64,000 bases of DNA from Desulfobacterales bacterium (GTDB lineage Bacteria; Desulfobacterota; UBA8473): NCBI GenBank assembly GCA_016209225.1, contig JACQWO010000009.1, positions 7,444 through 71,443 on the forward strand. The letters are read 5' to 3'. The position numbers and the translations under genes were made by a program. The notes beneath the pieces are model-generated. The model did not search any database. It was given only the letters and a program-made list of their open reading frames with translations, and was not told the origin of the DNA. Below are positions 17,558 to 58,381 of this stretch, in pieces. The first letter of the stretch is position 1. The number at the start of each line of letters is the position of its first letter.

Positions 17558-17558
17558 C

Positions 17559-18038: not shown

Positions 18039-18118
18039 AAAGCGCCTAAAGTGAACTAAAATTTTTTAACTTCCAACTTTACACTTTAGTAACCATTAGG
18101 GAGTGTTTGGGAACAAAT

Positions 18119-19629: not shown

Positions 19630-19644
19630 CTGCTCACGTAGTCA

Positions 19645-19714: not shown

Positions 19715-19736
19715 ATAGTTTGACGGATGAGACGAT

Positions 19737-20510
19737 ATGCGAGCTATCTTTCCTGCCTTTTTAAAACCTGTTGCGGATTTCACCATCACAGTCATCCTCT
19801 GGACGTACTACATTGTGGGATTTCTCGTGTTTTTTTCCCCCTTTTATCTTTATGCCTTCTTTTTTTCTGTCCGGCGTGAAGATGCCTTTCAAAAATTGAA
19901 TTGGCTGCTCCACCGGTCTTTTTTCTCTCTGTTACGAATCATCGTTCCCAGAGTGAAATGGCATATCGCGGAAGATGTCTCCGCTATCCGCTCTTCCATC
20001 ATCATTGCCAACCATCTTTCCTTCCTTGACCCCATTCTTTTCGTGTCTCTGTTTGAAAAACAGAAAACCGTTGTCAACATCGGCTATTTCAGACTCCCCG
20101 TTTTCGGCTGGATTTTGAAGACATCCGGCTATATCCCTTCCATGACAGAAGGCCTGTTTACGGAAAACATGATCCATCAGATAGAAAACATGAAGGATTA
20201 TTTGTCAGCAGGGGGAAACCTCTTTATATTTCCTGAGGGGACGAGAAGCCGCAATGGCCGAATAGGCCCCTTTGACAGAGGCGCATTCAGAATTGCCAGG
20301 CTATGTCACGCACCCATCAAGGTAGTATTGATTAGGAACACCCATAAACTCTATCCCCCGGGGAGTTTTTCCTTGAATACCTGTGACGAAAATGTCATCG
20401 AGATGAAACTGGCCGGAAGCCTTGAACCGGATTATGAAAGCGGCGCTTTTCCCCTATCCGGTCTCATGACGGAGGCGCGATCTCTCATGGAAGGAAAGAT
20501 GAAGCGATGA
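19737..20510 (+). CDS. Lysophospholipid acyltransferase (PlsC-like)
   Basis: NHLSFLD (HX4D) and FPEGTRS motifs; N-terminal TM segment. Confidence 0.9.
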   Translation: MRAIFPAFLKPVADFTITVILWTYYIVGFLVFFSPFYLYAFFFSVRREDAFQKLNWLLHRSFFSLLRIIVPRVKWHIAEDVSAIRSSIIIANHLSFLDPILFVSLFEKQKTVVNIGYFRLPVFGWILKTSGYIPSMTEGLFTENMIHQIENMKDYLSAGGNLFIFPEGTRSRNGRIGPFDRGAFRIARLCHAPIKVVLIRNTHKLYPPGSFSLNTCDENVIEMKLAGSLEPDYESGAFPLSGLMTEARSLMEGKMKR

Positions 20511-22054: not shown

Positions 22055-23589
22055 TGACATCTTCGGCCTCTTCAATGGCAGACCCTTCACGCATGAAGGA
22101 ACGGATCCGACTCCCCCTTTTGATTCCCATTCATCCTTATCTCAAAGACCACCATTTCGAAGGAAAAATCATTCTCCCCGCTGTTGAAATTCTTCAACGA
22201 CTGGCCGGTTCGGTGCAGTCTTATCGGCCCGATGCGCACATCAGATGTATGCGTTTCGCCTCATTCGACCGATTTTTGAATATCGGAGAGAATTCCCCTG
22301 TCATTGAAGCCTTTAATGAATTGGAGGTCTATGAAAGTGGGCGACTATCTTCCAAATTGATCACCGTCAGCCCGATAAGAGGCACCACCGCAATCAGGAC
22401 AAAAGTCCATGCCGTCGTCAATTTCACGGCCGCGGGGGAACGCATCGCCGGGCTGCCCATAGATATGCTCTCGGCGCTGGACGGCATTTGTTATAGAATT
22501 CCCTCCGGAAAATTGTACAGCGACCTGGTACCCTTCGGGCCTTCCTATCAGAATGTCAGGGGCAACGTCTTTCTTTCTGAGAGCGGCGGTGTGGCCCAGG
22601 TGCATGGTGCGGAACATCCGGCGCCAAGAGACCCCCTCGGGTCTCCGTTTCCCTTTGACGGGGCTCTTCATGTCGCCTGTGCCTGGGGACAGCGGTTTCA
22701 TCATATCGTGGCCTTTCCTGTGGGTTTTGAGGAACGCCTCATCGTCAATCAGACGGTACCGGGAGAAACCTACTTCTGCAGGATTTTACCTGTATCAGTC
22801 ACCGGAGAATCCCTTAAATTCGATATTTGGATACATGATTCGGCGGGGTGTCTTCGGGAGGAGATTAGAGGGTTAATGATGAGGGACGTCTCCGGCGGTC
22901 GCGTCGGCCCTCCTCCCTGGGTCCGAAGTGAAGGGGTTGTCTCCCTTGCCGCCATCGGGGAGCATTGCAGAGCACTATCCGTCATTGATATTGATACCAT
23001 TGCAGATTTTGCAATAAAAGCCCTTTCAGAAGGTGAAAGTGAGCGTTTTAAACCTATGGGAGCAAAAAGGCAAAAGAGCTATCTGGCGGCGCGTCTTACC
23101 CTAAAGTATCTTTCACGGAAACTGGCCGGTGGGGATAGGGTGACACCTGCCTCCGACATACACACGATGATGGAGGATCGGATTCATCCCCGCTGTCCGA
23201 TTCCCGGCGGCAAAGGTACGGCGTTTTGTTCCGTATCCCACGATAGCCGCTTTGCCGTTGCTGTTGCTGCCGATGAGGAAATCGGGGTGGACGTAGAAAT
23301 GGTATCCGACAGGGTTCTAAAGGCGCGGCACTACTATATGGAAGAGGAAGAAATGGCATTGACGGAGACATCCCCGTTGGGGCTTGTACATGCCTCCACC
23401 AGGGTCTGGTCCATAAAGGAAGGGGTAGCCAAGGCAACGGACAGGCCTCTTGCCGAATCGTGGAAAAGGGTAAAGGTCAATGACATTGGGCGGGACAGAA
23501 GCCGTCTAACCGTCGAAGGAACACGATACGTGGCCTTTCACGATACCGCCGACGATCATATTTTTACAATGGTGAAAAGGGAATCGTGA
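22054..23589 (+). CDS. PKS-type double-hotdog dehydratase fused to Sfp-type phosphopantetheinyl transferase
   Basis: N-terminal HPYLKDHHFEGKIILPAV (PKS DH His motif), FGPSYQ, DGALH; C-terminal SVSHD, IGVDVE, WSIKEGVAKA PPTase motifs. Confidence 0.75.
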   Translation: MTSSASSMADPSRMKERIRLPLLIPIHPYLKDHHFEGKIILPAVEILQRLAGSVQSYRPDAHIRCMRFASFDRFLNIGENSPVIEAFNELEVYESGRLSSKLITVSPIRGTTAIRTKVHAVVNFTAAGERIAGLPIDMLSALDGICYRIPSGKLYSDLVPFGPSYQNVRGNVFLSESGGVAQVHGAEHPAPRDPLGSPFPFDGALHVACAWGQRFHHIVAFPVGFEERLIVNQTVPGETYFCRILPVSVTGESLKFDIWIHDSAGCLREEIRGLMMRDVSGGRVGPPPWVRSEGVVSLAAIGEHCRALSVIDIDTIADFAIKALSEGESERFKPMGAKRQKSYLAARLTLKYLSRKLAGGDRVTPASDIHTMMEDRIHPRCPIPGGKGTAFCSVSHDSRFAVAVAADEEIGVDVEMVSDRVLKARHYYMEEEEMALTETSPLGLVHASTRVWSIKEGVAKATDRPLAESWKRVKVNDIGRDRSRLTVEGTRYVAFHDTADDHIFTMVKRES

Positions 23590-44439: not shown

Positions 44440-44532
44440 ATGGCACGGATAGTAAGAGTCATCATACCGGATACACCTCACAATATTATCCAGCGGGGAA
44501 ACCGCCGGGAAAAAAGGAGAATATGGACATAA
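44440..44532 (+). pseudogene. N-terminal fragment of REP-associated (Y1/HUH) tyrosine transposase
   Basis: MARIVRVIIPDTPHNIIQRGNRREK* matches the typical RAYT start (MARxxRxxxPxxPHHxxQRGNRR). Confidence 0.65.
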
Positions 44533-44963
44533 AAGCATTAAAAAATTACTTTGAAAACCGCAAGGGCATTGCTTTTGCCTTTTTATTCGGCTCCTATGCA
44601 AGAGGCACGGCAACAAAGCTGTCTGATGTTGATATAGCGGTTTATTTTTATCCTGAAAAAAGGCATCCCATAGAGTATGAAGAAGATGTATTTTATAAGG
44701 GCGAGGATGAGATATGGTCAGATATCGAAAAGCTTCTTAAAAAAGAGGTTGAGATGCTCGTTTTAAACAGGGGTTCTTCGAGTGTAGCTGCAAGCGCTAT
44801 AAGAGGGATACCGCTTGCTATAAATGATTGGGGTCTTTATCTTGATTTTATGGAGGTTGTAACTGAAGCGGCCGAGGATTTCAGGGAAATGGTCTTTCGG
44901 GACTTTCTTGAAAGGATGAAATTTGAAAGAAGAGCTAAAGCAGAGATTACTGAAACACATTAG
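44523..44963 (+). CDS. mntA: Minimal nucleotidyltransferase antitoxin (MNT)
   Basis: FLFGSYARG...SDVDIAV (GS-x10-DxD). Confidence 0.85.
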   Translation: MDIKALKNYFENRKGIAFAFLFGSYARGTATKLSDVDIAVYFYPEKRHPIEYEEDVFYKGEDEIWSDIEKLLKKEVEMLVLNRGSSSVAASAIRGIPLAINDWGLYLDFMEVVTEAAEDFREMVFRDFLERMKFERRAKAEITETH

Positions 44964-45363
44964 TTTTCTGGAGGTTGAACTCCGGGATTATCAGAAATTC
45001 AGACAACTCACTAAGGCAGAATATCTTGATGATGTCGACAAGAGAAGGAACGTAGAACGCTGGGTAGAAAATATAATAAATTCGTCAATAGACATATCCA
45101 AGGTCATTCTTACGCTTGAAGGTAAAAGTCTGCCTGACAACTACAAAGAGATTGTGTCTTCCATTTCGGCGGTTAAGGAATTGAAGCTTGAATCAGCAGA
45201 CTTGCTCTCTCGCTGGGTGAAGTTCAGAAACATCATTTCCGATGAATACCTCGATATAAGATGGTCATCCATCAAGAAGTTCATCTCGGAAACAGAACCT
45301 TTCTATAAAGATCTTTTGAATAAGGTGCAATTATATCTTAAAAAGAAAATAGCAGACGACTAA
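44923..45363 (+). CDS. hepT: HEPN/DUF86 ribonuclease toxin, catalytic His apparently replaced by Asp
   Basis: VERWVENIINSSIDI, FRNIISDEY where the family has R-x4-H. Confidence 0.8.
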   Translation: MKEELKQRLLKHISFLEVELRDYQKFRQLTKAEYLDDVDKRRNVERWVENIINSSIDISKVILTLEGKSLPDNYKEIVSSISAVKELKLESADLLSRWVKFRNIISDEYLDIRWSSIKKFISETEPFYKDLLNKVQLYLKKKIADD

Positions 45364-45424: not shown

Positions 45425-45489
45425 TATGAAGGGCGTCTTTCTTGATTCCTGAGATTATAGGGAGCAAAGAGGAAGGCGCTTTTTTTGTT
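45425..45489 (+). terminator. Repeated hairpin plus T-run, copy 1
   Basis: GTCTTTCTTGATTCCTGAGATTATAGGGAGCAAAGAGGAAGGCGCTTTTTTT; near-copy at 46431-46494. Confidence 0.6.
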
Positions 45490-45660: not shown

Positions 45661-45864
45661 ATGAGAACAACGCTTGACATACCTGAAGACTTAATTGATG
45701 AGGCTATGAAAGCTACTAGAATTAATACAAAAACCAAAGTCATAATCACTGCCTTAGAAGATTTAATAAGAAAATCAAAGATATCCGGCTTGAAAGAATT
45801 CAAAGGCAAGATAAATTTGGACATTGACATGAATGCAATTAGAGGGCGTCAATGTCGGTACTAG
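45661..45864 (+). CDS. vapB: VapB-type antitoxin (DUF2191-like)
   Basis: MRTTLDIPEDLIDEAM...TKTKVIITAL; precedes PIN toxin with overlap. Confidence 0.85.
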   Translation: MRTTLDIPEDLIDEAMKATRINTKTKVIITALEDLIRKSKISGLKEFKGKINLDIDMNAIRGRQCRY

Positions 45865-46232
45865 TAGATACATCCATATGGATAGAATATTTCAGAAGTG
45901 GAAATAGGTCTGAAAGACTTGATTTCTTAATTGATGAAAACCTAATTGTTATTAACGATCTCATTCTTGCCGAATTAGTACCATCTTTGAGGGTTATCAA
46001 TCAACGAAAAATTATTAAATTATTGTATGATATAAACAAGTTAGAGTTATCCATTAATTGGAACCAGCTTATTGACTTCCAATTCAAGTGTTTGAAAAAT
46101 GGTTTAAACGGAATCGGCATCCCTGATCTTATTGTAGTCCAAAACGCGAAACAAAACCGCTGCCAAATTTATTCACATGATAACCATTTTAAACTCATGG
46201 AAGACATCCTTGAACTCCGGCTGTTGGTTTAA
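45852..46232 (+). CDS. vapC: PIN-domain toxin
   Basis: VLVDTSIWIEY, ILAEL, IPDLIV, YSHDNHF. Confidence 0.9.
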   Translation: MSVLVDTSIWIEYFRSGNRSERLDFLIDENLIVINDLILAELVPSLRVINQRKIIKLLYDINKLELSINWNQLIDFQFKCLKNGLNGIGIPDLIVVQNAKQNRCQIYSHDNHFKLMEDILELRLLV

Positions 46233-46304: not shown

Positions 46305-46436
46305 CCGGAAGATTTTATGTGCTAATTGACCAAAGAAGAATTTGACTACTTGAAATCGCAAATTGCGACATCAAGTTATGATTGGAGTAGTCGACGAAAA
46401 CTATCATTGGTTTTTGCAGAACATGGCGCCATGCAG
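46305..46436 (+). pseudogene. ORF6N-domain protein remnant
   Basis: PEDFMC*LTKEEFDYLKSQIATSS...RRKLSLVFAEHGAM resembles the ORF6N motif FPEDFMFQL...FTEHG with an internal TAA. Confidence 0.6.
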
Positions 46437-46494
46437 GGGTCTTTCTTTAGTTCCTGAGATTACAGGGAGCAAAGAGAAAGGGCGTTTTTTTGTT
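46431..46494 (+). terminator. Repeated hairpin plus T-run, copy 2
   Basis: GTCTTTCTTTAGTTCCTGAGATTACAGGGAGCAAAGAGAAAGGGCGTTTTTTT. Confidence 0.6.
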
Positions 46495-46532: not shown

Positions 46533-46988
46533 ATGAATTCCAGCAGCAAACACAGGACAAAAAATTTCCTATTATGTTCACTCAGTATCTTGATGGTCTT
46601 ACTTTCCCCTCACATCTCAATAGCTAAGCAGGTAACCTTTGAAAGAGAATATACCTATCAGGCGAGTGAAGCTGACAGCAAACTTTCATGCAGGGCTATT
46701 GCGTTAGAGCAGGTAAAAAGGCTGCTTTTAGAGGAATTGGGGACATATCTTGAGAGCAGGACAGAGGTAAAGGATTTTAAGCTGACAAAGGACCAGATTA
46801 TAACCCTTACAGCAGGGATAGTAAGGACAGAGATAGAAAAAGAGACATGGGATGGTAAGGCATTCTGGTTGAAGGCCAAGATTGAAGCTGACCCTGATGA
46901 GGTAATAAGGTCCGTTGATTCTTTACGAAAAGACCATCAGAAGACAAAGGAGCTTGAGGAGACGAGGAGAAAAGCAGCGAGAGCTTAG
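46533..46988 (+). pseudogene. Secreted protein, probably C-terminally truncated at the island-border inverted repeat
   Basis: Signal peptide plus REYTYQASEADSK domain; TAG stop coincides with first base of the 46988 inverted repeat. Confidence 0.5.
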
Positions 46989-47066
46989 GGACGTTGTTTC
47001 TAAACAATAAATTACTTGACAGGCAGTCGATTCTTCTATAAAAATCATAAATAGAAACAACGTCTC
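46988..47066. repeat. 79-bp element bounded by 15-bp inverted repeats enclosing TTGACA
   Basis: GGGACGTTGTTTCTA (46988-47002) vs TAGAAACAACGTCTC (47052-47066), one mismatch. Confidence 0.7.
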
Positions 47067-47232
47067 TAAAGGCCCTAAAGGCCTTCCTGGTGACCCCATT
47101 CCTGTTGTGTAACGAAAGGGGGGTTGGATCAAGGAAAGGGGCAGAGAGAGCAATATCGTTAGAGTTATGTGCACGTTCTGCACCAACCCCCCCATCCCCT
47201 TATGCATGGTGTGAATCTGAGGTCATTTCGAG

Positions 47233-50200
47233 ATGCAGCCATATTCGGGGATTCTTATTACTGGCGTCGGTTGTGTCGGTAAAAGTTCTCTTAGACGCCG
47301 GGTGGCTGAAGCCTTTGGCAACCGAGTAGTATGCGTTGACCGGGATGACGCACTTCCTGAGCCGGAGGTGGCTCCAGGTCAAGTTCTGGTTGTTGAGTCT
47401 GTTCATGGACTTGAAGAACCCCCAGACCGATGGGGACTAGTGATTTATCTTCTTCCCCGACCGGGACTTGCACTTCGCTGGCTTTGGCGTGGGCTTATTT
47501 GGTTCAGGACCGGCAAGGTAGATCGTCCGCCACGAGCGTTACGAAAGGCTTTGTCATTACGTAATATTCCTATTATTGTTCATCTGGTAGCAAGAAATCT
47601 CTGGAATTCAAAGCGCTGGGTCGAGCAGGATTTAAAACGCATTACTGAACTTTCCTATAAAAACATCTTGGTGACAAATGACTCAGAAAAAGCGTTCAGT
47701 GAAATACGAGAATTGATCGAGAGGATGAACATGGTTACGGAAAATAATGAGGATAAACTTAAGAAATGGATCAGAGACAGCATTGAATTGGATTTGGTAT
47801 ACGATGAGGAGAACTATAATAAAGTAAACGGATGGGATTTACCATCTGTTAAAGATGCTTATAAATCAATTGAGGATCATAAATCAGCAGATTTATTTAA
47901 TTCCCTTGATAATTCTAAATCTTCCGATTCTTATTATTTCTATTTTAAATGCCTAAAGAAGAGACGTATCTTCTATGATTTGGAGTATGATAAAGCAAGA
48001 AAAGCTTTTGCCGACCAGGATCCTAATTTTGAATATAAATCTGTATGTGAGGCAGATGAAGTACGAAAGGAAATCCTTGATGGCATCATGTGGCGCTGTG
48101 CTGCCGCTATTTCCGATCTTCTAACTCAAAAAAAATCTCTAAAAAAAAATGAAGTACCCACATTCGAAGAGACATATCAAATTAAGGAGTTTGCCACTTT
48201 AATAGCCCTATTCCATTCGGAACTCTGTGCCAGCGCCACTCCAGATGTATCCTTGGGGCAAGCAAATACTTTTCATCTTACCGTTCCAGAAGAAGCCATC
48301 GGTTACGAAGTATTTAAATGGCTCGCCCGTCATAATCTTGCGCGTGGGTATACCCATATACATTTGAATCTTGAAGCTCTGAAATACATAGACACTTTGG
48401 TCGATGATTTTCCTAACAAAATCAGCGGCTTCGCAAAATCTATTAATTGTGATGAAAATCTCCTTTATCAGTGGCTTTTTTTCCCAACATCACGTACACT
48501 CGCTCAATCCCTTCTTGATCTGGGACGGCATTCAGAACAGAGATATTATTTAAAGAAAGCACTTGATGTGGCCAAATCAAAAAATATTGATCATTGGAAG
48601 AATAGACTACAGCTAGACTTAGACCTTGAGTGGAGAGATTCCGAAATATCTCTCAATTCTGACGAAATCTCTAAACGATTGGATAATTGGAAAAATTTGC
48701 CTGCTAGGCTCGAAGAAGCCTGCCAAACTGTTAAATCTTCATGCCCAGAATTGTTCTTAAATAAAACGGATGATGAAAAAAAATGGAATGAATGGAAAGA
48801 AAGTGAAGAATGGATTATTAGGTGGCACTCGGCAGATTTAACCGGATTTGGTCGTCATCTTAAAACGATAGCTAAAACAATTTCCGAGATGCTTAAAAAT
48901 AGGCCTGGGAAAAAATTATCTATTAAAGCCCTTCAGAGCATGATAAAGATGTTGGTTGAAGTCTACAGTGGTATCAAACGATTTGGTCAGAATGGTAAAA
49001 AACCTTATCCTTATGTTTATTACTTAATCCCTGATAACGATGGAGATAATTTTTCAGAAAAAGATCGGGTTTCAATTTGGGAGCAAGGTAGCGCGTTATT
49101 CAGTGCTATTAGAGATATACTAGATGATGAAGATATATCAGAGAGAGAAGAAATAGAAAAGAGGAAGGGAATAGTATCCGAACTAAGTAGCTTAAAATGG
49201 AAAGAGCACCTGAAAAAACTTTTAAACAAGAAAGATATAGATTTTGATAAATATCGCTCCCAAGCGATAAAGGCTGATGTATTTCGGGAAGACCAATGGC
49301 CCCAACAATATAAATGCCCACGAGATAAAGTTAAAGTTACTTGTAAGTCAACTTGCCCAGCTAATACATTTTCAGGAGATGTGTCTCCTATAATGAAAGA
49401 TACTCATTTGGCCCAATTAGGCCATTACAAATCAATTATGGCCGGTCAGCAGGAACGTTTTCTTAATTATCTGAAATATCGAACAGGACAGAAAAGGTGC
49501 TATAGACAGGGTGAAGCATACCTTCAGACACCTAATTTTGAATTAATTTGCCTTAGGCGTTGGAATTCTTTTTCTCCTAATCTTGGCTCTCGTGCGGCAG
49601 CTACTGTAGGGGGCGGCTACCTTGTACGAGCATGGGATGAAGATAAAAAACGCTATATTGGTATTGTAATTGACCCCGGTTATAATTTCCTAGAGAATTT
49701 GTTTAATGAAGGCTTTACACTACCGGATATAGATGTTGTGGTGATTACTCACGCACATCCAGACCATATCGAGAACCTCACTAATATTCTTACACTCATT
49801 AGAGAACGTAAAAATCGAGTGAGAGAAAAAAACAATGAAGAAAATGGGGATCACTGTAGAATCTCACCTCAAGATCACCGCATTCTTTTAGCCATGACCG
49901 AGGGTGTATTCGAGAGGTTTAGCCGATATCTTGATGACGAGAAAGATTATATCAGAGACGTATTAGTTCTATCAGCCGCCAACGCCCCTAGAGGAAATAA
50001 AGCTGGGAAAAATGAATTAAAGCTCTTGCTTGATAGTAATAACGATGTAACCTGTCATATGAAACTTGAATGCAATAAAGAAAATAAAGGAAAAATCAGT
50101 TTACGTGCCGCCCGCGCTTGGCATTTTGATGGCACTGATCATGATAGTATGGGTGTTGTAATAGAGTATAACGTACCCTCAAAAGACCCATATAAATTGG

Positions 50201-50826
50201 GAATAATTGGAGATACCAGATATATTCGAGATGATCTTTGCGATGATTATAAAGACTGCGATGTAGTGGTCGCTCACCTCGGCAGCCTTATTGATAAGAA
50301 AATGTATATGGACATGTTAGGAAGTAATGATAAACATAATTCTGTAGACAATAATGAATTCAATGATAAACTCTTGAAATTAATTACTAAAAAGAATCAC
50401 CTCTATCTTCCCGGACTTGCTCTATTAATATGCAACCTTCAGATAAAATCGCGAAAGTTCCCATTATTTGTTCTCTCTGAGTTCGGTGAAGAGCTACGTG
50501 GTGGTTTACGGAGGGATTTAACTCTTCGACTTTCATCTATTCTGGCTCACCCTGATAAAACTGATAAAACAAGTCCCATACCTATCATCCCGGGTGATGT
50601 GGGCTTGCGTATTGACATTGAGAATAATAAAGTCTTTTGCTGCATTTGTAACCGTTATGAAGATCCAATAAATATCAAATTTGAAACCGTATTGCCGGAC
50701 GAAGAGTCAATGGCCTATGTATGTAATGACTGTTATGAATTGAGACGAGGGGAGTTGACAAAGCTGTTAGAACAGTGGTGCACAACTGCCAGACCTGTGT
50801 GCAAGCTTGAGAAAAAAGCCAAATAA
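47233..50826 (+). CDS. Large multidomain protein: N-terminal P-loop kinase-like domain, helical middle, C-terminal metallo-beta-lactamase fold with Cys-rich tail
   Basis: ITGVGCVGKS Walker A; LRRWNSFSP...GGGYLV...IDPGY...THAHPDH (HxHxDH); later AWH, GDT, AH ligands; CCIC...CNDC tail; possible internal start ATG 47731. Confidence 0.75.
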   Translation: MQPYSGILITGVGCVGKSSLRRRVAEAFGNRVVCVDRDDALPEPEVAPGQVLVVESVHGLEEPPDRWGLVIYLLPRPGLALRWLWRGLIWFRTGKVDRPPRALRKALSLRNIPIIVHLVARNLWNSKRWVEQDLKRITELSYKNILVTNDSEKAFSEIRELIERMNMVTENNEDKLKKWIRDSIELDLVYDEENYNKVNGWDLPSVKDAYKSIEDHKSADLFNSLDNSKSSDSYYFYFKCLKKRRIFYDLEYDKARKAFADQDPNFEYKSVCEADEVRKEILDGIMWRCAAAISDLLTQKKSLKKNEVPTFEETYQIKEFATLIALFHSELCASATPDVSLGQANTFHLTVPEEAIGYEVFKWLARHNLARGYTHIHLNLEALKYIDTLVDDFPNKISGFAKSINCDENLLYQWLFFPTSRTLAQSLLDLGRHSEQRYYLKKALDVAKSKNIDHWKNRLQLDLDLEWRDSEISLNSDEISKRLDNWKNLPARLEEACQTVKSSCPELFLNKTDDEKKWNEWKESEEWIIRWHSADLTGFGRHLKTIAKTISEMLKNRPGKKLSIKALQSMIKMLVEVYSGIKRFGQNGKKPYPYVYYLIPDNDGDNFSEKDRVSIWEQGSALFSAIRDILDDEDISEREEIEKRKGIVSELSSLKWKEHLKKLLNKKDIDFDKYRSQAIKADVFREDQWPQQYKCPRDKVKVTCKSTCPANTFSGDVSPIMKDTHLAQLGHYKSIMAGQQERFLNYLKYRTGQKRCYRQGEAYLQTPNFELICLRRWNSFSPNLGSRAAATVGGGYLVRAWDEDKKRYIGIVIDPGYNFLENLFNEGFTLPDIDVVVITHAHPDHIENLTNILTLIRERKNRVREKNNEENGDHCRISPQDHRILLAMTEGVFERFSRYLDDEKDYIRDVLVLSAANAPRGNKAGKNELKLLLDSNNDVTCHMKLECNKENKGKISLRAARAWHFDGTDHDSMGVVIEYNVPSKDPYKLGIIGDTRYIRDDLCDDYKDCDVVVAHLGSLIDKKMYMDMLGSNDKHNSVDNNEFNDKLLKLITKKNHLYLPGLALLICNLQIKSRKFPLFVLSEFGEELRGGLRRDLTLRLSSILAHPDKTDKTSPIPIIPGDVGLRIDIENNKVFCCICNRYEDPINIKFETVLPDEESMAYVCNDCYELRRGELTKLLEQWCTTARPVCKLEKKAK

Positions 50827-50844: not shown

Positions 50845-51948
50845 TTATAACTTCAGGACCAGTGGGTCCGCCGCCCCAGTTATTAGTCCGGCGGCTGAAC
50901 GACACCCCCCGGCACATTCGTAAAATATTTTGCATAGGTAGCCTGTTTCGTAATCTACGCATTTCTTCGGAAGGAAAGAAAAGGTACGTCGTTTAACAAG
51001 TAATGGATGCTCGTTCCACATTTTTATTGGTTCTACTTCCAAGAGGGAAAGCCCGACTGGCGGGCCTCCGGGACACAGCTTGAAGTGACCTTCCGGGTCA
51101 AAGGCAAGCTGGGATATGGCCATGTAACAGGGACGAATACTTGCAAGGAGCGCGTCAATAAATGCTGAACTCAGTCTATTGGAATTCGCTCGATCTAGTA
51201 TCCAGCAATGGGGCACAGCTTCAACTCGCATTTCCCAGTCTCCACTGGCCAACTGTCCGATCGCCTGCATCACATTCCACCAACCATCCTCGTCCAAGAA
51301 TACACTTTGGCCTCTTTCCGCACCTTCCCCGTATGGCAAAAGACGATTAACATCAATGAAGCGGACAACACCGCTATACCTAGTACTTAGCATAGCAGCT
51401 AATGCTTCAAGTCCATTTTTATCAAGTCTTGTAGGTGAGTATTGAACGAATACCCTCACACCTGCCTCAACCATAGTATCAAGACTATTTATGGCTCGAA
51501 GAAAAGAATTTGATGAACCCGTCAAGCGATCATGAATATCTGCCACAGAGCTATGTAATGAGACTCCAACTTCAATATTAATATCTGATAGGAGGTTAGC
51601 ACGCTTTTTATTGATATGGCCTCCATTAGTAACAATTCGTTGCTCAAGACCCAACTTCGCGCCAAGTTCTAAAATTGATTCGAAATCCGGATGAATTGTT
51701 GGTTCACCACCCAGGTATAATATTTCACGCACCCCCCAGGTCGCCAATGTCTGAATAATTTTTCTTGTAGTCTCCCCGGGAGGATTAGCGTGACTATGAT
51801 TTTCGACCGGATTATAACAAAAGGCGCACCTTTGATCGCAGCACCAGGTTAAATCAAACATAACATTATCTGGTGCATTGGGAATACGGTAGAGGCAACC
51901 GGGCCGCACATCATAAGTAAAAAGATGTCGGGATTTCATTACAACCAT
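50845..51948 (-). CDS. Radical SAM/SPASM protein (RiPP operon, distal)
   Basis: CDQRCAFC, GGEP, TNG; C-terminal CYM...GHFKLCPGG...C...C...CAGGC. Confidence 0.85.
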   Translation of the reverse strand: MVVMKSRHLFTYDVRPGCLYRIPNAPDNVMFDLTWCCDQRCAFCYNPVENHSHANPPGETTRKIIQTLATWGVREILYLGGEPTIHPDFESILELGAKLGLEQRIVTNGGHINKKRANLLSDINIEVGVSLHSSVADIHDRLTGSSNSFLRAINSLDTMVEAGVRVFVQYSPTRLDKNGLEALAAMLSTRYSGVVRFIDVNRLLPYGEGAERGQSVFLDEDGWWNVMQAIGQLASGDWEMRVEAVPHCWILDRANSNRLSSAFIDALLASIRPCYMAISQLAFDPEGHFKLCPGGPPVGLSLLEVEPIKMWNEHPLLVKRRTFSFLPKKCVDYETGYLCKIFYECAGGCRSAAGLITGAADPLVLKL

Positions 51949-52021
51949 TCCCCCACTGTGGCTGTAGTCATGGAAGGACGCCGGGATTGAGGTAATGAAA
52001 GTAAAATTCTGTTAAAGATGC

Positions 52022-53152
52022 TCATTCCCTTACCTTATTTGATCGCTTAGCTTCAAAATATAAAGATGCGGTAGCTTCAATATACTTATCAAAGTTTTCC
52101 ACAAGGCCACCGGGAGGCTCAACTTTATTCATTAAGGCCGCTTTATCCAGAGCATCGGCAACACTTGCGGGATCTTCCGGATCGACCACAAGAAGCAATG
52201 GAGAATCTCGGAGCAAATCGGTATCAGGATGGTTAACTGTGGATGGCGATACCAGACATGGACGCCCTACGGATAAAGTCTCCCAAACAATGTTACTGAA
52301 ATTAGATATACCGCCCTCGCGTTCTACCGCCCAAACAGCTGTTGCTTCGGAAAGCAAGGATGGCATTTGGTCAGGAGAGATAAAAGACCGACGAGTAATA
52401 CGCTGAGACAGCCCATGTTTTTTTATCTCGCTTTCAAAATCTTCTCTTCCTTTACCATCAGCTACCATTTTAAGACGCCAGTCTTGCCGCAATCTGAAGG
52501 ACTCTAATAAGGTGTCGAGGGCTTTTAGCTTCCAGTAATAATTTATCTTTCCAGCGAATAGCAGGCAAAAAGGAGAAGGGGAAATTCCAACAGGCGAAAA
52601 GGCCTGGGGATCTGGAGCGTATCTTGGAAGGAAGACGAGCGAATTGGCAGAGTTGGTTCTTTCAGGTAATTGTGAAACTGCATCGGGTGTCGAAACAATA
52701 AAGTCAGCTTTGATTATAAGTGACTCTAAAGCGCGCTGAGCTGGCTTCCAATTATAGAGCTTGGCCAAGTCACTTCCAGCGTGTCGAATGAGCAAAGGGA
52801 CACCAAGCATCCGAGAGATAGTGAATGCGGCGAATCCATAGGGGACTAGATAATTGGCTTCAATTAAGCCGGGCATTTGATCGTTTGCAAGGTCAAGAGC
52901 AGCGGAAACAAGCCGCTCTATCCAAAGCCCTCCGCCGGGTATGAACCAAGGAGGCTCCTCCTCGATTGTGATTTGACGAAGTCGAATCTTGTTCGGAAGT
53001 TTGCCAGTAGTCTCTGACCGATACAGTGTAGGAACGATAGTAACTATGTCGAAATAAATGTCGTGCGCGGCCAGTGCATGGCATAGCCAGAAGCTCCTCG
53101 AAGAAATCCCTCCCTGGCCTGGCGGGAACTTTCCTATGAGAAGGACCTTCAT
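52022..53152 (-). CDS. GT-B fold glycosyltransferase (GT4-like)
   Basis: LLIGKFPPGQGG start, HAGSDL, FAGKIN, FSNIVWETLSVGRP; ATGA overlap with asnB. Confidence 0.75.
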   Translation of the reverse strand: MKVLLIGKFPPGQGGISSRSFWLCHALAAHDIYFDIVTIVPTLYRSETTGKLPNKIRLRQITIEEEPPWFIPGGGLWIERLVSAALDLANDQMPGLIEANYLVPYGFAAFTISRMLGVPLLIRHAGSDLAKLYNWKPAQRALESLIIKADFIVSTPDAVSQLPERTNSANSLVFLPRYAPDPQAFSPVGISPSPFCLLFAGKINYYWKLKALDTLLESFRLRQDWRLKMVADGKGREDFESEIKKHGLSQRITRRSFISPDQMPSLLSEATAVWAVEREGGISNFSNIVWETLSVGRPCLVSPSTVNHPDTDLLRDSPLLLVVDPEDPASVADALDKAALMNKVEPPGGLVENFDKYIEATASLYFEAKRSNKVRE

Positions 53153-54855
53153 GAGGCAATTACCTGCTTGTTAACTTCAGCTGCAAAGTCATAAATGGAA
53201 AAGTCAGGTGGAGTAGAAAACCCTGGCTCGACATGCAGGTAGATGAAAAGTTCTGCAAGAAGGCTCTGCAAATAATCTGGTTTCTTCTTGCCGTTTTTAT
53301 CGTTGGGAAGTTTTTCCAAGAGCTGCGCTGCTGCCATTTCTACCGCTGAAGGCATCGCTCTTTTCCGACGTACTGCAACTCGTTCCATACCAGGTTCAGT
53401 AAACCGACGTCTGGCAATTGATCTTAAGGGCATCTTCGTCCAGTTATGGGTCCTGTCGATAAGTGAAGCTTCGTCAAGGCGAGCAACATAATCAACTAAT
53501 TCATTGTCAAGGTAGGGAGGGCGGATTTCAAGACCAAAGGCCATTCCTGAACGGTCCACGCTTGGGAGGTGATACTCAGAAAGGCCTTGATGGAGAGCGA
53601 GATCACGGATTGCATGGTTCCCTCCAGAATTTGGGTGTAGCAAATTGTGAACCTCTAGCCACTCTCTGAGAGCTGGGGTCGCATGGCTTTCAGCGCGTTC
53701 CTTCATAGTTTCAATAAAAAGATTTGGTTCCATATGGAGTCTATGATAACCAAGAAATAGCTCGTCAGCCCCTTCTCCGCAGAGAGCAACCCGGAAGTCA
53801 CTCCCTACGTTGCGCGCCAGAGCGTGGAATGCAACCCCACCCAAAAGGTCAAAAGTACCACCAGCAATTGGATGTTCAAAATGCCATGCATAGTGGACAA
53901 TTTCGCGGGCAAGGTCAGACTCATTGATTAATCGCTCTTGAAGAGGTACATCGAGAGTGGTAGCAATCTTCCTAGCCTCTACTAGATCGTCGGTGTCTTC
54001 TCTGTCACTCAAAATGAAAGCGGTGACTGGAATTTCTTTCCTTGCAATATCAAGTAGCAGCGAGGAGTCGAGTCCTCCTGAGAAAAAGAGGGCCTTTGGA
54101 TTCAGATCATGCAATACAGCTCGTTTTACTGATGTGGTTAAGAGATTCTCTACAACATCTCGAAGCTCTTCAGGATCTGGATGGCTACCTTGACCAGGTT
54201 GAGGAACTTTAGGAACCTGGGCAAAGAGCAATTCTTTTATAACTCCAAAAGATTGAACTTCGACAAAGTGGCCTGGTTGTACTGCACTGATGGCTCTAAA
54301 AGGAGTCTTCCCAACAAATATGTTATATCCCAGGACAGAAAAAGACGACATGACATCTTCGTCTAATTCCCGAGAGAAGCCGTGAAGCGATAGCAGTACT
54401 TTCATTTCAGAAGCGAAAACTAGACCTCCTCGATGGTTAGCATAATAAAGTGGCTTGATGCCGAATCGGTCCCTGGCCAGAATCAAACTGTTTCCGTCAA
54501 AAAAGCATAAAGAAAATAGTCCATTTAAGTCAGGTAAAAGTCTCGTACCACGTTCTTTAAGAAGCTGGCCCATAAATTCGGTATCTGTTTTAGGAAAAGC
54601 TGATTTAGGATTTTCATAATTTATGCCTAACCCATAAATTTCACCATTAAGCACTAACACCTGCTGATCGGATGGAGAGCATATCGGAGGCGAATCCAGA
54701 GGTGGCAGGATGGCAAGACGGCAACTTCCAAGTGCAAGAGTGTCTATTTGCTTCACTTGACGACAATCTGGTCCTCGGTACCCAAGCACGTTGAGTGCTA
54801 CTGATATCTCTTCACAAGAAATGTCTGTGTTGAAGGCTCCTACAAACCCACACAC
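53149..54855 (-). CDS. asnB: Asparagine synthetase B-like glutamine amidotransferase
   Basis: N-terminal MCG (Ntn Cys), RGPD, NGEIY, RDRFGIKPLYY, SGGLDS, GEGADELF, DRSGMAFGLEIRPPYLD. Confidence 0.9.
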   Translation of the reverse strand: MCGFVGAFNTDISCEEISVALNVLGYRGPDCRQVKQIDTLALGSCRLAILPPLDSPPICSPSDQQVLVLNGEIYGLGINYENPKSAFPKTDTEFMGQLLKERGTRLLPDLNGLFSLCFFDGNSLILARDRFGIKPLYYANHRGGLVFASEMKVLLSLHGFSRELDEDVMSSFSVLGYNIFVGKTPFRAISAVQPGHFVEVQSFGVIKELLFAQVPKVPQPGQGSHPDPEELRDVVENLLTTSVKRAVLHDLNPKALFFSGGLDSSLLLDIARKEIPVTAFILSDREDTDDLVEARKIATTLDVPLQERLINESDLAREIVHYAWHFEHPIAGGTFDLLGGVAFHALARNVGSDFRVALCGEGADELFLGYHRLHMEPNLFIETMKERAESHATPALREWLEVHNLLHPNSGGNHAIRDLALHQGLSEYHLPSVDRSGMAFGLEIRPPYLDNELVDYVARLDEASLIDRTHNWTKMPLRSIARRRFTEPGMERVAVRRKRAMPSAVEMAAAQLLEKLPNDKNGKKKPDYLQSLLAELFIYLHVEPGFSTPPDFSIYDFAAEVNKQVIAS

Positions 54856-54875
54856 GATTGTTTACCCCTTACTGT

Positions 54876-55733
54876 TTATCTGCTCAGTCGATGTAGCGCT
54901 GCACTCCAACCAAGATGGAGCCAAGCTGATCCTTCCTCTATAAAATGTGTAGCAAATAAGCCGTTATCTAGGCGGTTAGATTCACACCAATGGATGGCAC
55001 GTTTCAGAGCTTCATCGCTCTGTCTGCTATTGGACACGGAGGCAATCGCCCACATAGCGATACCGGTAGAGAAACAATCGGTAGGGGCAGGATGGTTACG
55101 CCAGGGCCCCCAGACACCGTCGTCTCTTTGGTCGGCGAGCAGATGATTCAGCGTTCGTTCAAATAGACTAGAATTTCCCTCCTGTTTATCTTGCGCGAGA
55201 AGAAACCATGCAGCCTTATAAGAAAGACACTGGAGGTTATTAACATCCTTCAACCACTGGTTATTTAGCCAAGTCGCTGAACGTTCATCACGAAGGGAAG
55301 GCACTAGAAGCCGAATGGTAGAAGTAATGGGAATGCAAGGTGTGTCCCGATGACAATATCCCCATCCGTCTCCAGAACGCTCTTCTGCTAACCATTTAAT
55401 GCTAAGTCCTGTATCGATAGAAGGATCCCCAAGGTATCGGAGGACTAAGATGCACCAAGCAGTATCTTCACAGTCAACCCACGCGCCATCAGTGTGACGT
55501 TTGCTGACTAAGTAGCTTAATACACTTTCCCGCCAGGTAACAGAGGTTCCTTCTATACCAGAGAGCAACAATAGCCCAGCTAGCCTTGCTACACGCCGAT
55601 GAGGCAACTTCCTTTGTATGAAATCGACAAGAATCCTCTGGAGAGTAGCCGAGGTTGGCTTGAGAGCATCGGGCCTAGGTTCAGTACTGATCCCATTCTC
55701 CTTTAGAATAATAAATTTCCTATCTACACCCAT
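54876..55733 (-). CDS. Prenyltransferase/squalene-cyclase repeat (alpha/alpha barrel) protein
   Basis: QW-like repeats RHTDGAW, RSGDGWG, QRDDGVWG, RLDNGLF; likely start ATG 55733 (ORF track 55760). Confidence 0.7.
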   Translation of the reverse strand: MGVDRKFIILKENGISTEPRPDALKPTSATLQRILVDFIQRKLPHRRVARLAGLLLLSGIEGTSVTWRESVLSYLVSKRHTDGAWVDCEDTAWCILVLRYLGDPSIDTGLSIKWLAEERSGDGWGYCHRDTPCIPITSTIRLLVPSLRDERSATWLNNQWLKDVNNLQCLSYKAAWFLLAQDKQEGNSSLFERTLNHLLADQRDDGVWGPWRNHPAPTDCFSTGIAMWAIASVSNSRQSDEALKRAIHWCESNRLDNGLFATHFIEEGSAWLHLGWSAALHRLSR

Positions 55734-55842
55734 GGCACCCAGAACATTGACGGCAGACATACTTCCAGCCTGCTCGTATTGGCCGAAGGATGAAATCTAA
55801 ACCTTTTTTACGTTTGAAAACCGGTTTTTCATATCGCTGCAT
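55720..55842 (-). CDS. Putative RiPP precursor peptide, 40 aa (not in ORF track)
   Basis: MQRYEKPVFKRKKGLDFILRPIRAGWKYVCRQCSGCHGCR*; GGGGGGTG SD-like motif upstream; YxxP leader motif; directly after PqqD-like gene. Confidence 0.8.
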   Translation of the reverse strand: MQRYEKPVFKRKKGLDFILRPIRAGWKYVCRQCSGCHGCR

Positions 55843-56173
55843 TTTTTTCACCCCCCTTTTTTTCGTTGATTATTTTCTTCTCATTGGAATCATGCAATAA
55901 TTCCAAACACCCTTCGCAAACAGCTTCCTTGATTAAGATTTCCAAATCGTTGCGGGCTTCGTTTGCTTCCTTAAAATTAGTCTGGATATCCAAGCAAATT
56001 TTATCAATGTCCCTTGAGCCGTCCATTCTTATGAACATTTCAAAAGCGACTTTATTGAGTTCGAAGCGTTCACCTGTCCCAGACTTATACATAAAGTATT
56101 GATCAGTACCCTCAGGGTGGACGAGCTTTACTCCTTTTACTAGGCGCGGGTATTTTCGGGTTCGATCCAACAT
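55829..56173 (-). CDS. PqqD-family RiPP recognition element (RRE)
   Basis: FELNKVAFEMFIRMDGSRDIDKIC...DLEILIKEAVCEGCL fits the PqqD pattern (LN..A..I...DG....I...L....EEG.L). Confidence 0.8.
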   Translation of the reverse strand: MLDRTRKYPRLVKGVKLVHPEGTDQYFMYKSGTGERFELNKVAFEMFIRMDGSRDIDKICLDIQTNFKEANEARNDLEILIKEAVCEGCLELLHDSNEKKIINEKKGGEKNAAI

Positions 56174-57204
56174 TGAGGGTCACCTCCTAACCAATCGCCG
56201 CAAAATGACAGAGCCATTGCACGACAACCACGACAAATCGGTATAAACCTGCAGTTTGAACACAGGCCTTTTAAATTAGATGGTTCTCTAATCCTCCATA
56301 ATATTGGCGAGGCGTACCAAATGTCATAAAGACTATCGGTCAGGATATTTCCAAGAGGAATGGGCAACCTCCTACATGGGTAGATCGTCCCATCATGAAG
56401 AATGCATAAAGCATTTATTCCAACCGAGCACATGGCTCCAACATGTGGTGACTGATCATCAACAAGACAATAGAGCGGCCGATACATTAATACTTTTGGT
56501 CTATCATGCTCGTGTGCCCATTTATAGACACCATGAAAAGCTTTTTTCAATTGTTCGGGCGTAAGTATCCAGGACTTCTGATCTGCCGCCTGTCCTTCAG
56601 GAATAAATCGTTCGACGCTGAAAAAGTCAACATTGTATTCATGGAGAAGATCAAGAAGGGGAATGATGTCATTTACATTATGCTGTGATATTGTCATCAT
56701 AATAGAGACCGTTAAGCCATGACGCTTCATCCGGGAAATAGCATCAAGCGTTTTCCGAAAAGAACCTTTGCCACGGATACCATCATGAGATTCTGCAGTA
56801 GCTCCTTCCAAAGAAACCTGGACTCGCCTTAGCAATGATTTATGCGCTAATTCTTCACAATCTGAATCGCTTAGAAGAAGACCATTTGTAAGCAGATCTA
56901 CTCGATCAATAAGGCCGCCACTGGCAAAGCGGTCGAGCAATGATAAAACAGAGTGTCGGCGTAACCAGGGTTCACCGCCCGTTAAGCTAACTGCGCCTCG
57001 ACGATCCCATTCTTCAATGGCGGCTTCCAGAATATCTACCACTTTTAGAAGCAGCTGATCAGAAAGTTCGTTTGCAGAATCATAAGAGGTATGGTAGCAA
57101 TGACGACAGCGACAATTACACTGTTCGGTTATATGCCATTGGAAATAAAATTCAGTGTCAATTGAGGGTTCCTGGTAGACCATTCGAGATCCAGAATCTA
57201 TCAT
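56140..57204 (-). CDS. Radical SAM/SPASM peptide maturase (RiPP operon, proximal)
   Basis: QWHITEQCNCRCRHC, TGGEP, TNG, VQVSLEG; full SPASM CSVG...DGTIYPC...LGNI...CSNCRFIPICRGCR...DPQC. Confidence 0.9.
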   Translation of the reverse strand: MIDSGSRMVYQEPSIDTEFYFQWHITEQCNCRCRHCYHTSYDSANELSDQLLLKVVDILEAAIEEWDRRGAVSLTGGEPWLRRHSVLSLLDRFASGGLIDRVDLLTNGLLLSDSDCEELAHKSLLRRVQVSLEGATAESHDGIRGKGSFRKTLDAISRMKRHGLTVSIMMTISQHNVNDIIPLLDLLHEYNVDFFSVERFIPEGQAADQKSWILTPEQLKKAFHGVYKWAHEHDRPKVLMYRPLYCLVDDQSPHVGAMCSVGINALCILHDGTIYPCRRLPIPLGNILTDSLYDIWYASPILWRIREPSNLKGLCSNCRFIPICRGCRAMALSFCGDWLGGDPQCWIEPENTRA

Positions 57205-57428: not shown

Positions 57429-57482
57429 TTGAAGCGAAAGGGATGTACTTGGGGAGGTTGGTTCGGGACGACGAGGTACTTG

Positions 57483-57648
57483 GGGACGTTCTTTCTAAAT
57501 AAATGCTTTTCGGGGCAGAGATGAGCTTGGTCTTTCGGCGGCTGAAATAGCGCGGCAGGTAGGCGTGAATACATCAGGTGTTACAAAGGCAATCGAGAGG
57601 GCTGAACAACGTTATGGCTATAAATACCGCAAATAGAAGCGACGTTCC
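57483..57648 (+). mobile_element. Internally deleted transposase element: C-terminal HTH remnant between imperfect inverted repeats
   Basis: GGGACGTTCTTTCTA ... TAGAAGCGACGTTCC (11/15); inside, FRGRDELGLSAAEIARQVGVNTSGVTKAIERAE* resembles the HTH tail of RAYT-type transposases. Confidence 0.6.
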
Positions 57649-57709: not shown

Positions 57710-57728
57710 GATAATGGAGGTGATTATA

Positions 57729-57929
57729 ATGGGACGCACAAATATTGTTCTCGATGATAAACTTGTGGATGCTTGCCTTAAGGCCACTGGAATCAAAACT
57801 CGCAAAACGTTAATCGATCATGCCCTCATGGAACTGCTTCGGCATGAATCCCAAAAGAAAATTCTCGAGCTTAAAGGAAAAATTCATTGGGAAGGAAACC
57901 TGGCAGAGTGGCGACAGGGACGTGATTAA
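57729..57929 (+). CDS. vapB: VapB-type antitoxin (DUF2191-like)
   Basis: MGRTNIVLDDKLV...IKTRKTLIDHAL...LKGKIHWEG; GGAGG RBS. Confidence 0.85.
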   Translation: MGRTNIVLDDKLVDACLKATGIKTRKTLIDHALMELLRHESQKKILELKGKIHWEGNLAEWRQGRD

Positions 57930-57931
57930 CA

Positions 57932-58381
57932 ATGCTTATCGTCGATACGACCGTCTGGATTGATTTCTTTGCTGCACGATCAGCGCCACATGTGGAGATA
58001 TTAGAAACGCTTATCGAGGAAAGAGAAGATATATGCATCTGCGGGATCATTCTCTCAGAAGTACTTCAAGGCATTCGTAAAGAATCCGAATTCAGAAAGA
58101 CAAGAGACCTGTTCGATTCTCTGGTTTTCCTCCCGATGGAATACAAAACTTTTTTACGCTCAGCCGAGATATACCGACTGCTTCGCCGAAAAGGCATAAC
58201 TATTAGTCAGCCTATAGATTGCATGATAGCGTCGGTTGCCATTGAAAATGATATTCCGCTTCTCCACAACGATAAGCATTTTAACCCCATAGAAAAACAC
58301 TGTGGATTAAAGCGATTTTGCCAGCACTTGACACCCTCCCCTTCATCCCCTACCATTAAGGGAGGAAAGAGGGGGAAGTAA
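57932..58381 (+). CDS. vapC: PIN-domain toxin
   Basis: IVDTTVWIDF, ILSEVLQG, IDCMIA, LLHNDKHF. Confidence 0.9.
   Translation: MLIVDTTVWIDFFAARSAPHVEILETLIEEREDICICGIILSEVLQGIRKESEFRKTRDLFDSLVFLPMEYKTFLRSAEIYRLLRRKGITISQPIDCMIASVAIENDIPLLHNDKHFNPIEKHCGLKRFCQHLTPSPSSPTIKGGKRGK

Follow-up and report, generated by a model that had tools for sequence, protein, structure and literature searches.

In the formation of pyrroloquinoline quinone (PQQ), a small precursor peptide (PqqA), a stand-alone PqqD, a SPASM-type radical S-adenosylmethionine (rSAM) enzyme (PqqE) and a metallo-β-lactamase (MBL)-fold protein (PqqB) are combined following an intracellular logic, and precursor-only copies of PqqA are documented from viruses (PMC7678222). 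A cassette with parallel parts is present in a 64,000-nt stretch of DNA from a Desulfobacterales bacterium (contig JACQWO010000009.1, positions 7,444 to 71,443; in the following termed the window, to which all positions refer unless another locus is named). It comprises seven tightly coupled minus-strand genes (50845-57204), each neighbouring pair overlapping or at most 73 nt apart, all of which are present as proposed in an initial annotation made from the sequence alone. One of them encodes a hidden 40-aa precursor of a ribosomally synthesised and post-translationally modified peptide (RiPP). The cassette is larger than that annotation had recognised, since it extends beyond 50845 and includes a convergent gene for a large MBL protein (47233-50826, plus strand). 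It had been suggested that the product may be intracellular, resembling a cofactor or metallophore, or else be processed in trans; an intracellular product fits the absence of a conserved protease or exporter. The partnership with an MBL or HD protein, the defence-island setting and the stand-alone precursors of phages make host-virus conflict a more likely role than that of a natural product or metallophore, with a PQQ-like cofactor as the main rival.

Compared to PQQ formation, the first rSAM enzyme of the cassette (rSAM1) and its PqqD-like protein score low with the respective models (77.3 vs 381 bits for PqqE; 30 vs 46 bits for the PqqD equivalog), and the peptide core contains four Cys and one His instead of the Glu-x3-Tyr pair of PqqA. 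Furthermore, the MBL protein is about 1000 aa in length, carries a tetratricopeptide repeat (TPR)-like solenoid as well as a Zn ribbon and has a structure closer to that of RNase Z, and genes for an AsnB-type protein, a glycosyltransferase, an α/α-barrel protein and a second rSAM enzyme (rSAM2) are additionally present. No PqqC-like gene was found at the cassette loci examined, and no PqqF in the cassette.

Sactipeptide and ranthipeptide systems (SkfB, AlbA, CteB/SCIFF, PapB) share with the cassette the Cys-rich C-terminal core and the SPASM rSAM enzyme dependent on a RiPP recognition element (RRE), SkfB being the best solved relative. However, scores are far below the cut-offs (SkfB, 79.5 vs 300 bits; AlbA, 47 vs 850 bits, obtained with rSAM2; StsB, 95.8 vs 625 bits; PapB, 73.9 vs 340 bits), protease, exporter and immunity genes are lacking, the core is invariant rather than diversifying, and the cassette is tied to a nuclease-like protein and has phage-borne copies. 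The ACGX system (TIGR04340), likewise targeting small Cys/Gly-containing peptides, provides the best end-to-end NCBIfam model for rSAM1 (E 1e-56), but the score (192.7 bits) remains below the cut-off of 400 bits, the cassette peptide has no ACGX repeats and the accessory genes differ. Mycofactocin biosynthesis (MftA/B/C and MftF) also unites a peptide, an RRE, a SPASM rSAM enzyme and a glycosyltransferase for an intracellular product; in contrast, the MftC model yields 113.5 vs 265 bits, the cassette peptide ends in HGCR instead of Gly-Val-Tyr, MftD and MftE are absent, and the glycosyltransferase is of another family (GT4).

Effector-swapping anti-phage systems resemble the cassette in their defence-island location, mutually exclusive phosphoesterase effectors, a fusion of helical repeats with a nuclease, and phages carrying the small component only. 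TPR-sensor and dGTPase anti-phage systems are known, as are abortive-infection modules which phages escape by means of a copied inhibitor (ToxIN and pseudo-ToxI); to our knowledge, none of the known defence systems employs a ribosomal peptide matured by radical-SAM chemistry.

No protein of the cassette reaches the curated cut-off of any named rSAM/RiPP system in NCBIfam; for both rSAM enzymes, family-model placement had been suggested beforehand and was run against NCBIfam and Pfam. Literature searches on the core motif, the enzyme combination, anti-phage rSAM plus PqqD and phage or viral RiPP precursors retrieved no description of the peptide or the cassette, PMC11118758 reporting RiPP-phage correlations of a general kind only. 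With neither a named system, a family nor a paper found, the initial view that the enzyme combination is not a characterised class is supported, though for a larger set of genes than first described.

Precursor peptide and predicted maturation enzymes

The precursor gene (55720-55842, minus strand; translation MQRYEKPVFKRKKGLDFILRPIRAGWKYVCRQCSGCHGCR, read from the sequence) overlaps the stop of the PqqD gene and the start of the barrel gene. Its ATG at 55842 is preceded by a GGGGGG Shine-Dalgarno-like run and the gene shares 14 nt with the PqqD stop region; the encoded peptide ends in CRQCSGCHGCR. A small ORF (open reading frame) with the C-terminus CRQC(S/A)xCHGCR-stop occupies the same position in all loci reached via barrel homologues (40-64 % identity), and precursor homologues with the same leader and core are also found at loci reached via the MBL protein. 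The peptide is therefore real and not a chance ORF. While the initial annotation had allowed for homologous loci lacking it, the peptide ORF is conserved at every homologous locus examined, and the neighbourhood analysis proposed there revealed conservation of both gene order and precursor among relatives.

A degenerate DNA pattern for the peptide C-terminus (~44 bits; ~0.01 chance matches expected) matched 52 IMG/VR viral contigs and at least 120 metagenome contigs, i.e., >170 loci overall, most of them short metagenome contigs. Reading back to the upstream stop codon gave 149 distinct translations, including two outliers (L026 and L147) that are apparent false positives. In nearly all translations, a Lys-rich N-terminus is followed by Y-(E/Q/I)-K-P, a basic segment and (M/L)-x-F, with the core located 38 residues downstream of the Tyr; the leader consensus is YEKP..K...(M/L).F. 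Synonymous codons are scrambled in the peptide genes, and since every synonymous codon is in use, all six Arg codons included, selection acts on the peptide rather than on the DNA. Core variants at independently reached loci (CLQC in Bathyarchaeota, CIQC in a jumbo phage) define C-x-Q-C-x-x-C-H-G-C-R as the true invariant. A route via Ser phosphorylation and dehydration was rejected, because neither of the two core positions that vary retains Ser throughout, as the variants CRQCGGC and CRQCAGC reveal. Searching with a peptide profile retrieved 858 protein clusters (E≤0.01), which are all designated as hypothetical or misnamed and lack Pfam domains throughout. No model for these peptides was found in NCBIfam (E up to 10) and no match in PHROGs (E up to 0.01); Pfam, searched with the window peptide only, likewise gave no match (E up to 0.01).

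In operon order, the first three junctions between the seven genes are overlaps (34, 14 and 14 nt); 20 nt separate the fourth gene from the fifth, the fifth and sixth overlap by 4 nt, and 73 nt precede the last gene. The first gene encodes rSAM1 (354 aa; 56140-57204, minus strand), a predicted radical SAM/SPASM peptide maturase with a CxxxCxxC motif (PF04055, 69 bits; PF13186, 36.8 bits) and with SkfB and PqqE as best solved relatives. It is followed, with the 34-nt overlap, by the gene for the stand-alone PqqD-like RRE (114 aa; 55829-56173, minus strand), which passes the Pfam cut-off (PF05402, 26.1 vs 23.4 bits) while missing that of the PqqD equivalog mentioned above. The PqqD gene position is conserved among relatives, and rSAM/PqqD genes precede the peptide in 31 of the 33 system loci for which the flanking sequence is long enough.

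Translationally coupled to the peptide is a barrel protein of about 285 aa (54876-55733, minus strand). Its start codon is assigned to the ATG at 55733, within the His-Gly codons of the peptide, where the homologues begin as well; residues 1-23 of the longer ORF (294 aa; 54876-55760) are disordered in the AlphaFold2 (AF2) model. This model (predicted local distance difference test score, pLDDT, 89.6) displays an α/α6 barrel, the closest folds being class II terpene cyclase domains and the thioester domains of α2-macroglobulin and C3; the Foldseek matches comprise drimenyl diphosphate synthase (8zg5 among the matches), MstE, squalene-hopene cyclase (SHC) and α2M/C3d thioester domains. A reading as LanC-like protein or protein prenyltransferase is not backed by the top Foldseek matches. 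Profiles of the barrel protein match the QW repeats of SHC, and the longer ORF matches squalene-cyclase repeats. DGxWVDCEDTAW, ERxxxGWGYCxRD, QRxDGxWGPW and HxIEEG are invariant motifs, the D-C-E-D-T-A-W stretch resembling the cyclase motif DxDDTA by sequence and representing, in structure, no more than a candidate equivalent of the SHC motif. Only ~44 representative clusters were obtained from 1.84 billion proteins at E≤1e-30, which makes this a small family, and a search of genome contigs with the single barrel protein yielded one relative only.

The glutamine-dependent AsnB-type amidotransferase (568 aa; 53149-54855, minus strand; Pfam GATase_7 and Asn_synthase) remains below the TIGR01536 cut-off (228.8 vs 267 bits), but retains the N-terminal Cys2 of the glutaminase. 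An AsnB gene is present in all eight loci with ≥7 kb of downstream sequence; other systems, e.g., the Bacteroidales and Bathyarchaeota cassettes, and some phages have a short form restricted to the synthetase domain. The GT4-family (GT-B) glycosyltransferase (376 aa; 52022-53152, minus strand; Glyco_trans_1_4, 41.3 bits; Glycos_transf_1, 28.9 bits) is encoded in seven of the eight long loci, and also in the Bacteroidales and Bathyarchaeota cassettes. The last gene, coding for rSAM2 (364-367 aa; 50845-51948, minus strand; Radical_SAM, 65.3 bits), represents a variable accessory present in four of the eight long loci. The protein aligns end to end with the NirJ2/ScmE/AhbD models of NCBIfam and has the Cys pattern Cx12Gx4C...Cx8Cx5Cx3C. 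Thus, of the two rSAM-SPASM enzymes initially assigned, rSAM1 stands as such, but rSAM2 has no Pfam SPASM match and only a SPASM-like Cys pattern in its C-terminus.

Gene order and translational coupling are conserved across bacteria and archaea. Domain calls together with the conserved precursor back the initial assignment as a radical-SAM/RRE peptide-maturation operon around a hidden precursor, and it is a well-supported prediction that the peptide is the substrate of the PqqD-guided SPASM rSAM enzyme and of further tailoring enzymes. In agreement with the initial annotation, which had noted neither a protease nor an exporter, no conserved protease, transporter or immunity gene was found in about 50 system loci.

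Candidate partner phosphoesterases and genomic setting

The MBL gene is convergent with the operon, its stop being located 18 nt from the last stop of the operon. Its product (1197 aa; 47233-50826, plus strand), a candidate effector or partner of the peptide, consists of a P-loop part, a TPR-like α-solenoid, an RNase-Z-type MBL domain and a C-terminal Zn ribbon. Reading the ORF as a product of two split genes was rejected, since the N-terminal P-loop fusion recurs in six homologues. In the AF2 model (pLDDT 86.2; predicted template modelling score, pTM, 0.89), ~520 residues of helical repeats matching TPR proteins are followed by the MBL domain and the C-terminal Zn ribbon. Foldseek ranks RNase Z, ZipD, YhfI and the anti-Pycsar nuclease Apyc1 ahead of PqqB, which weakens a PqqB-like reading; the top match is RNase Z (1y44; E 4e-8, TM(target) 0.75). 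The RNase Z equivalog TIGR02651 was, however, not reached (20.8 vs 293 bits), and the solenoid of 520 aa and the Zn ribbon set the architecture apart from that of RNase Z. The THAHPDH motif (HxHxDH metal motif) and later His/Asp residues are invariant among homologues. Distant homologues are explicit TPR-MBL fusions. This architecture also exists outside the cassette, since one such homologue (695 aa; locus L185, 7001-9088) is encoded among housekeeping genes (gyrase, superoxide dismutase) with no peptide cassette nearby.

Gene maps were made for 153 non-redundant loci; ORF calling in these maps was crude, and some barrel genes were missed. The first recognisable gene downstream of the peptide encodes the barrel protein at 12 loci, a 1000-1260-aa MBL protein at 13 and AsnB at four. 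Homologues of the MBL protein are encoded in or beside the cassette at 23 loci, frequently as the gene that immediately follows the peptide. Seven of the eight loci with ≥7 kb downstream code for either a large MBL or a dGTPase-type HD protein, the two never occurring together. In HD-type cassettes the HD protein is accompanied by a kinase-like P-loop protein, encoded separately, and by a PHP protein, the kinase being PSTK-like and the PHP protein resembling pAp phosphatase. The HD proteins (838-960 aa; L008, 12435-14951; L006, 9920-12802; L186, 13580-16327) reach the cut-off of the dGTP triphosphohydrolase subfamily and resemble anti-phage dGTPases, but not the cut-off of the anti-phage dGTPase model (109-119 vs 400 bits). 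Between the HD and HD_assoc parts they carry a ~650-residue insert with several conserved Cys clusters, an architecture that we do not recognise from any protein known to us. The peptide of one HD-type cassette (L186/L187/L188) is widely sampled (134 collection blocks). This cassette adjoins a Fic-domain gene and a pair of MarR-regulated ABC half-transporter genes (about 430-7050).

An 18-nt motif (TAGAAAGAACGTCCCCAA; 57480-57497, minus strand), a candidate shared operator, is situated ~275 nt upstream of the first gene of the operon. An inverted repeat of the same motif (46985-47069) flanks promoter-like hexamers (TTGACA ... TATAAA) upstream of the MBL gene. Altogether, the motif (TAGAAASAACGTCYCYAA) occurs three times in 64 kb vs zero expected. 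Its presence upstream of both transcription units suggests joint regulation of operon and MBL gene, the inverted repeat possibly serving as operator. A 151-aa ORF (46533-46988, plus strand) with a hydrophobic N-terminus and no family match ends in the first arm of the inverted repeat.

In the window the cassette resides in a toxin-antitoxin-rich island of lower GC content. Genes for PIN-domain (VapC-like) proteins are located on both sides (45852-46232 and 57714-58381, both plus strand), the right one with a likely VapB gene upstream, and two 146-aa ORFs on the left (about 44522-45363, plus strand) were judged by eye from their translations to form a likely MNT/HEPN toxin-antitoxin pair. Long flanking repeats that could mark island boundaries were sought, yielding only short motifs. 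Beside the left PIN gene and the 151-aa ORF, an intergenic 64-nt direct repeat (45426-45489 and 46431-46494; 78 % identity) may represent a repeated terminator or else a small mobile element. Where the GC content of the window is higher, acyl carrier protein, FabF-like, radical SAM and B12-rSAM genes form a separate cluster (12036-23589, plus strand), which appears unrelated to the cassette.

The cassette is single-copy in its genome and missing from the remaining 400 genomes sampled in the phylum, six of the same genus included. In Bacteroidales it is bordered by HNH and M78/helix-turn-helix genes on one side and by PemK and a type I restriction system on the other, and in Bathyarchaeota it adjoins HEPN_AbiV and a McrA-like gene; further loci adjoin Eco57I-type restriction-modification systems (3 loci), NERD or SNF2 proteins. 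The cassette, which occurs in these and other lineages, is best explained as a self-contained unit that probably moves horizontally.

Phage-borne precursor copies

Nearly all of the 52 IMG/VR matches are devoid of any cassette enzyme. The peptide genes are neighboured by genes for small and large terminase subunits, portal/adaptor, major head protein, endonuclease VII and HNH proteins, as well as for Lar-like and DarB-like anti-restriction proteins and DNA methyltransferases, and these neighbours span many unrelated PHROG families. Among 28 whole viral records searched, radical-SAM genes were found only in one 316-kb record, where they are remote from the peptide. Of the eight records with ≥90 % completeness, seven, some of them with terminal repeats, contain no radical-SAM gene at all.

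In total, at least 43 peptide copies stand alone, with no maturase within reach. Leaders of these orphans and of system peptides share the same consensus with the same spacing, and the two groups interleave: for 22 of 42 orphans, a system peptide is the nearest neighbour (leader identity up to 90 %), so that phage leaders appear to track host subfamilies. Such tracking is expected only if the orphans still meet maturation enzymes. At four phage-like loci a gene for a short AsnB (synthetase domain only) is adjacent to the peptide. The 316-kb jumbo phage record (L061, about 2416-3569) has a short AsnB followed by two tandem precursor genes, one encoding a peptide with an extra Cys-rich insert, the other a peptide with the core CIQCSGCHGCR that closely resembles the peptide of the Bathyarchaeota cassette.

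Possible roles of the cassette

We lean, tentatively, towards the matured peptide being an intracellular ligand of the nuclease-like effector, with phages mimicking the precursor. A role in conflict is favoured because of the exclusive MBL/HD partners, the repeat domain, the defence islands, the sporadic distribution and the precursor-only copies, which many phages carry in accessory regions and whose leaders follow the host subfamilies. The PqqD-like protein would bind the 40-aa peptide via its YEKP..K...(M/L).F leader, and the SPASM rSAM enzyme would modify the CxQCxxCHGCR C-terminus, thioether or other Cys-centred cross-links being the most likely products. Tailoring by the barrel protein, the glycosyltransferase, the second rSAM enzyme and AsnB may follow. 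AsnB would most likely amidate or otherwise cap the C-terminus, since the only carboxylate of the core is C-terminal and AsnB is the most constant partner. The other half of the cassette would be a large metal-dependent phosphoesterase, here the P-loop/TPR-like/RNase-Z-type MBL/Zn-ribbon protein and elsewhere the set of kinase, PHP and dGTPase-type HD proteins. The matured peptide would stay in the cell and control this effector, probably via the helical repeat domain, which is of a peptide-binding type, the whole cassette thus acting as a module in anti-phage defence or in conflict between mobile elements. Precursor look-alikes of phages would be accepted by the host enzymes and keep the effector under phage control. 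Gene content, its conservation, the predicted folds, the genomic contexts and the phage-borne copies are what the analysis shows; every chemical step, the link of ligand to effector and the direction of control (inhibitor or activator) are what we infer from them. An inhibitor replenished by phages would explain the phage copies best.

Several observations weigh against a conflict role. A near-invariant 11-residue core across bacteria, archaea and phages is unusual, because conflict genes normally diversify and cofactor precursors are typically invariant, although the apparent invariance is inflated, since the DNA pattern itself required the core. RiPP cross-links usually stabilise peptides and would fit poorly with a labile antitoxin. 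The phage copies are mostly located in late, structural modules, and a counter-defence gene would be expected early in infection. Some system loci adjoin ordinary housekeeping genes, and the large MBL and HD proteins share no sensor domain detectable by BLAST or hhalign. PADLOC (v2), applied to all cassette proteins, gave no system-level match, only radical-SAM similarity of a generic kind to pVip (54-69 bits), plus two matches with E>0.004 for the MBL protein.

The main rival, which we regard as doubtful, is a function similar to PQQ or mycofactocin, in which the peptide would be consumed to form a small intracellular cofactor or a metal-binding prosthetic group, the MBL protein would be PqqB-like or a client enzyme, and the phage copies would be auxiliary metabolic genes. 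Core invariance across domains of life favours this possibility, as do the parallels to PqqA/B/D/E with PqqB among the Foldseek matches, the glycosyltransferase as in mycofactocin, the absence of a conserved exporter or protease, and the documented occurrence of PqqA in viruses (PMC7678222). Its location in islands, an architecture like that of RNase Z and the replacement by a dGTPase weigh against it: the cassette is sporadic (1/401 genomes), candidate client enzymes outside the cassette were not found, the MBL domain, part of one polypeptide with ~520 aa of helical repeats and a Zn ribbon, resembles RNase Z/Apyc1 more closely than PqqB, an alternative consisting of dGTPase-type HD protein, PHP nuclease/phosphatase and kinase is hard to place in cofactor synthesis, and PqqC-, PqqF-, MftD- or MftE-like genes are missing. 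It is improbable that the peptide serves as a pearlin-like scaffold, on whose free C-terminus an AsnB-type ligase would build a small molecule, possibly an antiviral nucleoside or nucleotide analogue, with tailoring by the rSAM enzymes and the glycosyltransferase, and with phosphoesterases and kinase processing the nucleotide part or releasing the product. The strictly conserved C-terminus and stop position would agree with a scaffold, as would AsnB as the most constant partner and the sole enzyme that some phages carry with the peptide, and the nucleotide-handling enzymes of the cassette (dGTPase-type HD, PHP resembling pAp phosphatase, PSTK-like kinase). Yet an aminoacyl-tRNA-dependent ligase and a release protease are lacking, the AsnB of the window keeps its glutaminase, suggesting simple amidation, and identical scaffolds supplied by a phage would raise the antiviral output and be of no help to the phage.

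The Cys-rich core beside a SPASM rSAM enzyme with RRE, together with the sactipeptide maturase SkfB as best solved relative, could also suggest an ordinary RiPP of the sacti-/ranthipeptide type that is secreted for antimicrobial action or signalling, receives additional tailoring and depends on unlinked genes for processing and export, the MBL and phage copies being incidental. This is the least probable of the explanations considered, given that about 50 loci lack a conserved protease, transporter or immunity gene, that the core shows no bacteriocin-like diversification, that the MBL/HD linkage is systematic, and that a secreted bacteriocin would give complete phage genomes no reason to carry the precursor alone. 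Finally, the peptide itself might be a small metal-binding or Fe-S protein (CxxCxxCxxC plus His), unmodified in phages and some cells, with the cassette enzymes acting in some lineages only. The Cys spacing recalls ferredoxin cluster motifs, and the many stand-alone copies with no maturase in reach (at least 43), together with complete phages having no rSAM gene, would be compatible with such a protein; still, we attach little probability to it, because the leader motif, presumably required for RRE binding, is equally conserved in orphans with the same spacing, and orphan leaders track the subfamilies of system leaders.

Returning to the favoured conflict role, a more specific version, held with somewhat greater reserve, would be a RiPP-based immune module: a radical-SAM-matured, glycosylated and capped peptide serving inside the cell as a password for the control of a TPR-like RNase-Z-type nuclease or of a dGTPase-type enzyme, countered by phages of multiple lineages with look-alike precursors, indistinguishable to the maturation enzymes of the host, and sometimes with an AsnB-type capping enzyme of their own. 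Irrespective of the role, at least 858 unannotated peptide clusters, with a core nearly invariant across bacteria, archaea and phages, are covered by no NCBIfam or PHROG model, no Pfam match of the window peptide and no paper found. The cassette joins enzymes for which no such cooperation is known, is consistently linked to nuclease-like or dNTPase-like proteins, and either way holds unexplored chemistry, comprising the Cys4-His core, an α/α barrel presumably acting on a peptide and putative capping by AsnB. Should the password version of the conflict role prove true, it would represent the first RiPP-built defence system and the first phage mimicry of a RiPP precursor outside cofactor supply. 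Control of the effector by the peptide would then constitute a new class of immune signalling and, on the side of the phages, a new class of counter-measure; a cofactor instead would be a new peptide-derived cofactor of anaerobes, the supply of which is boosted by phages.

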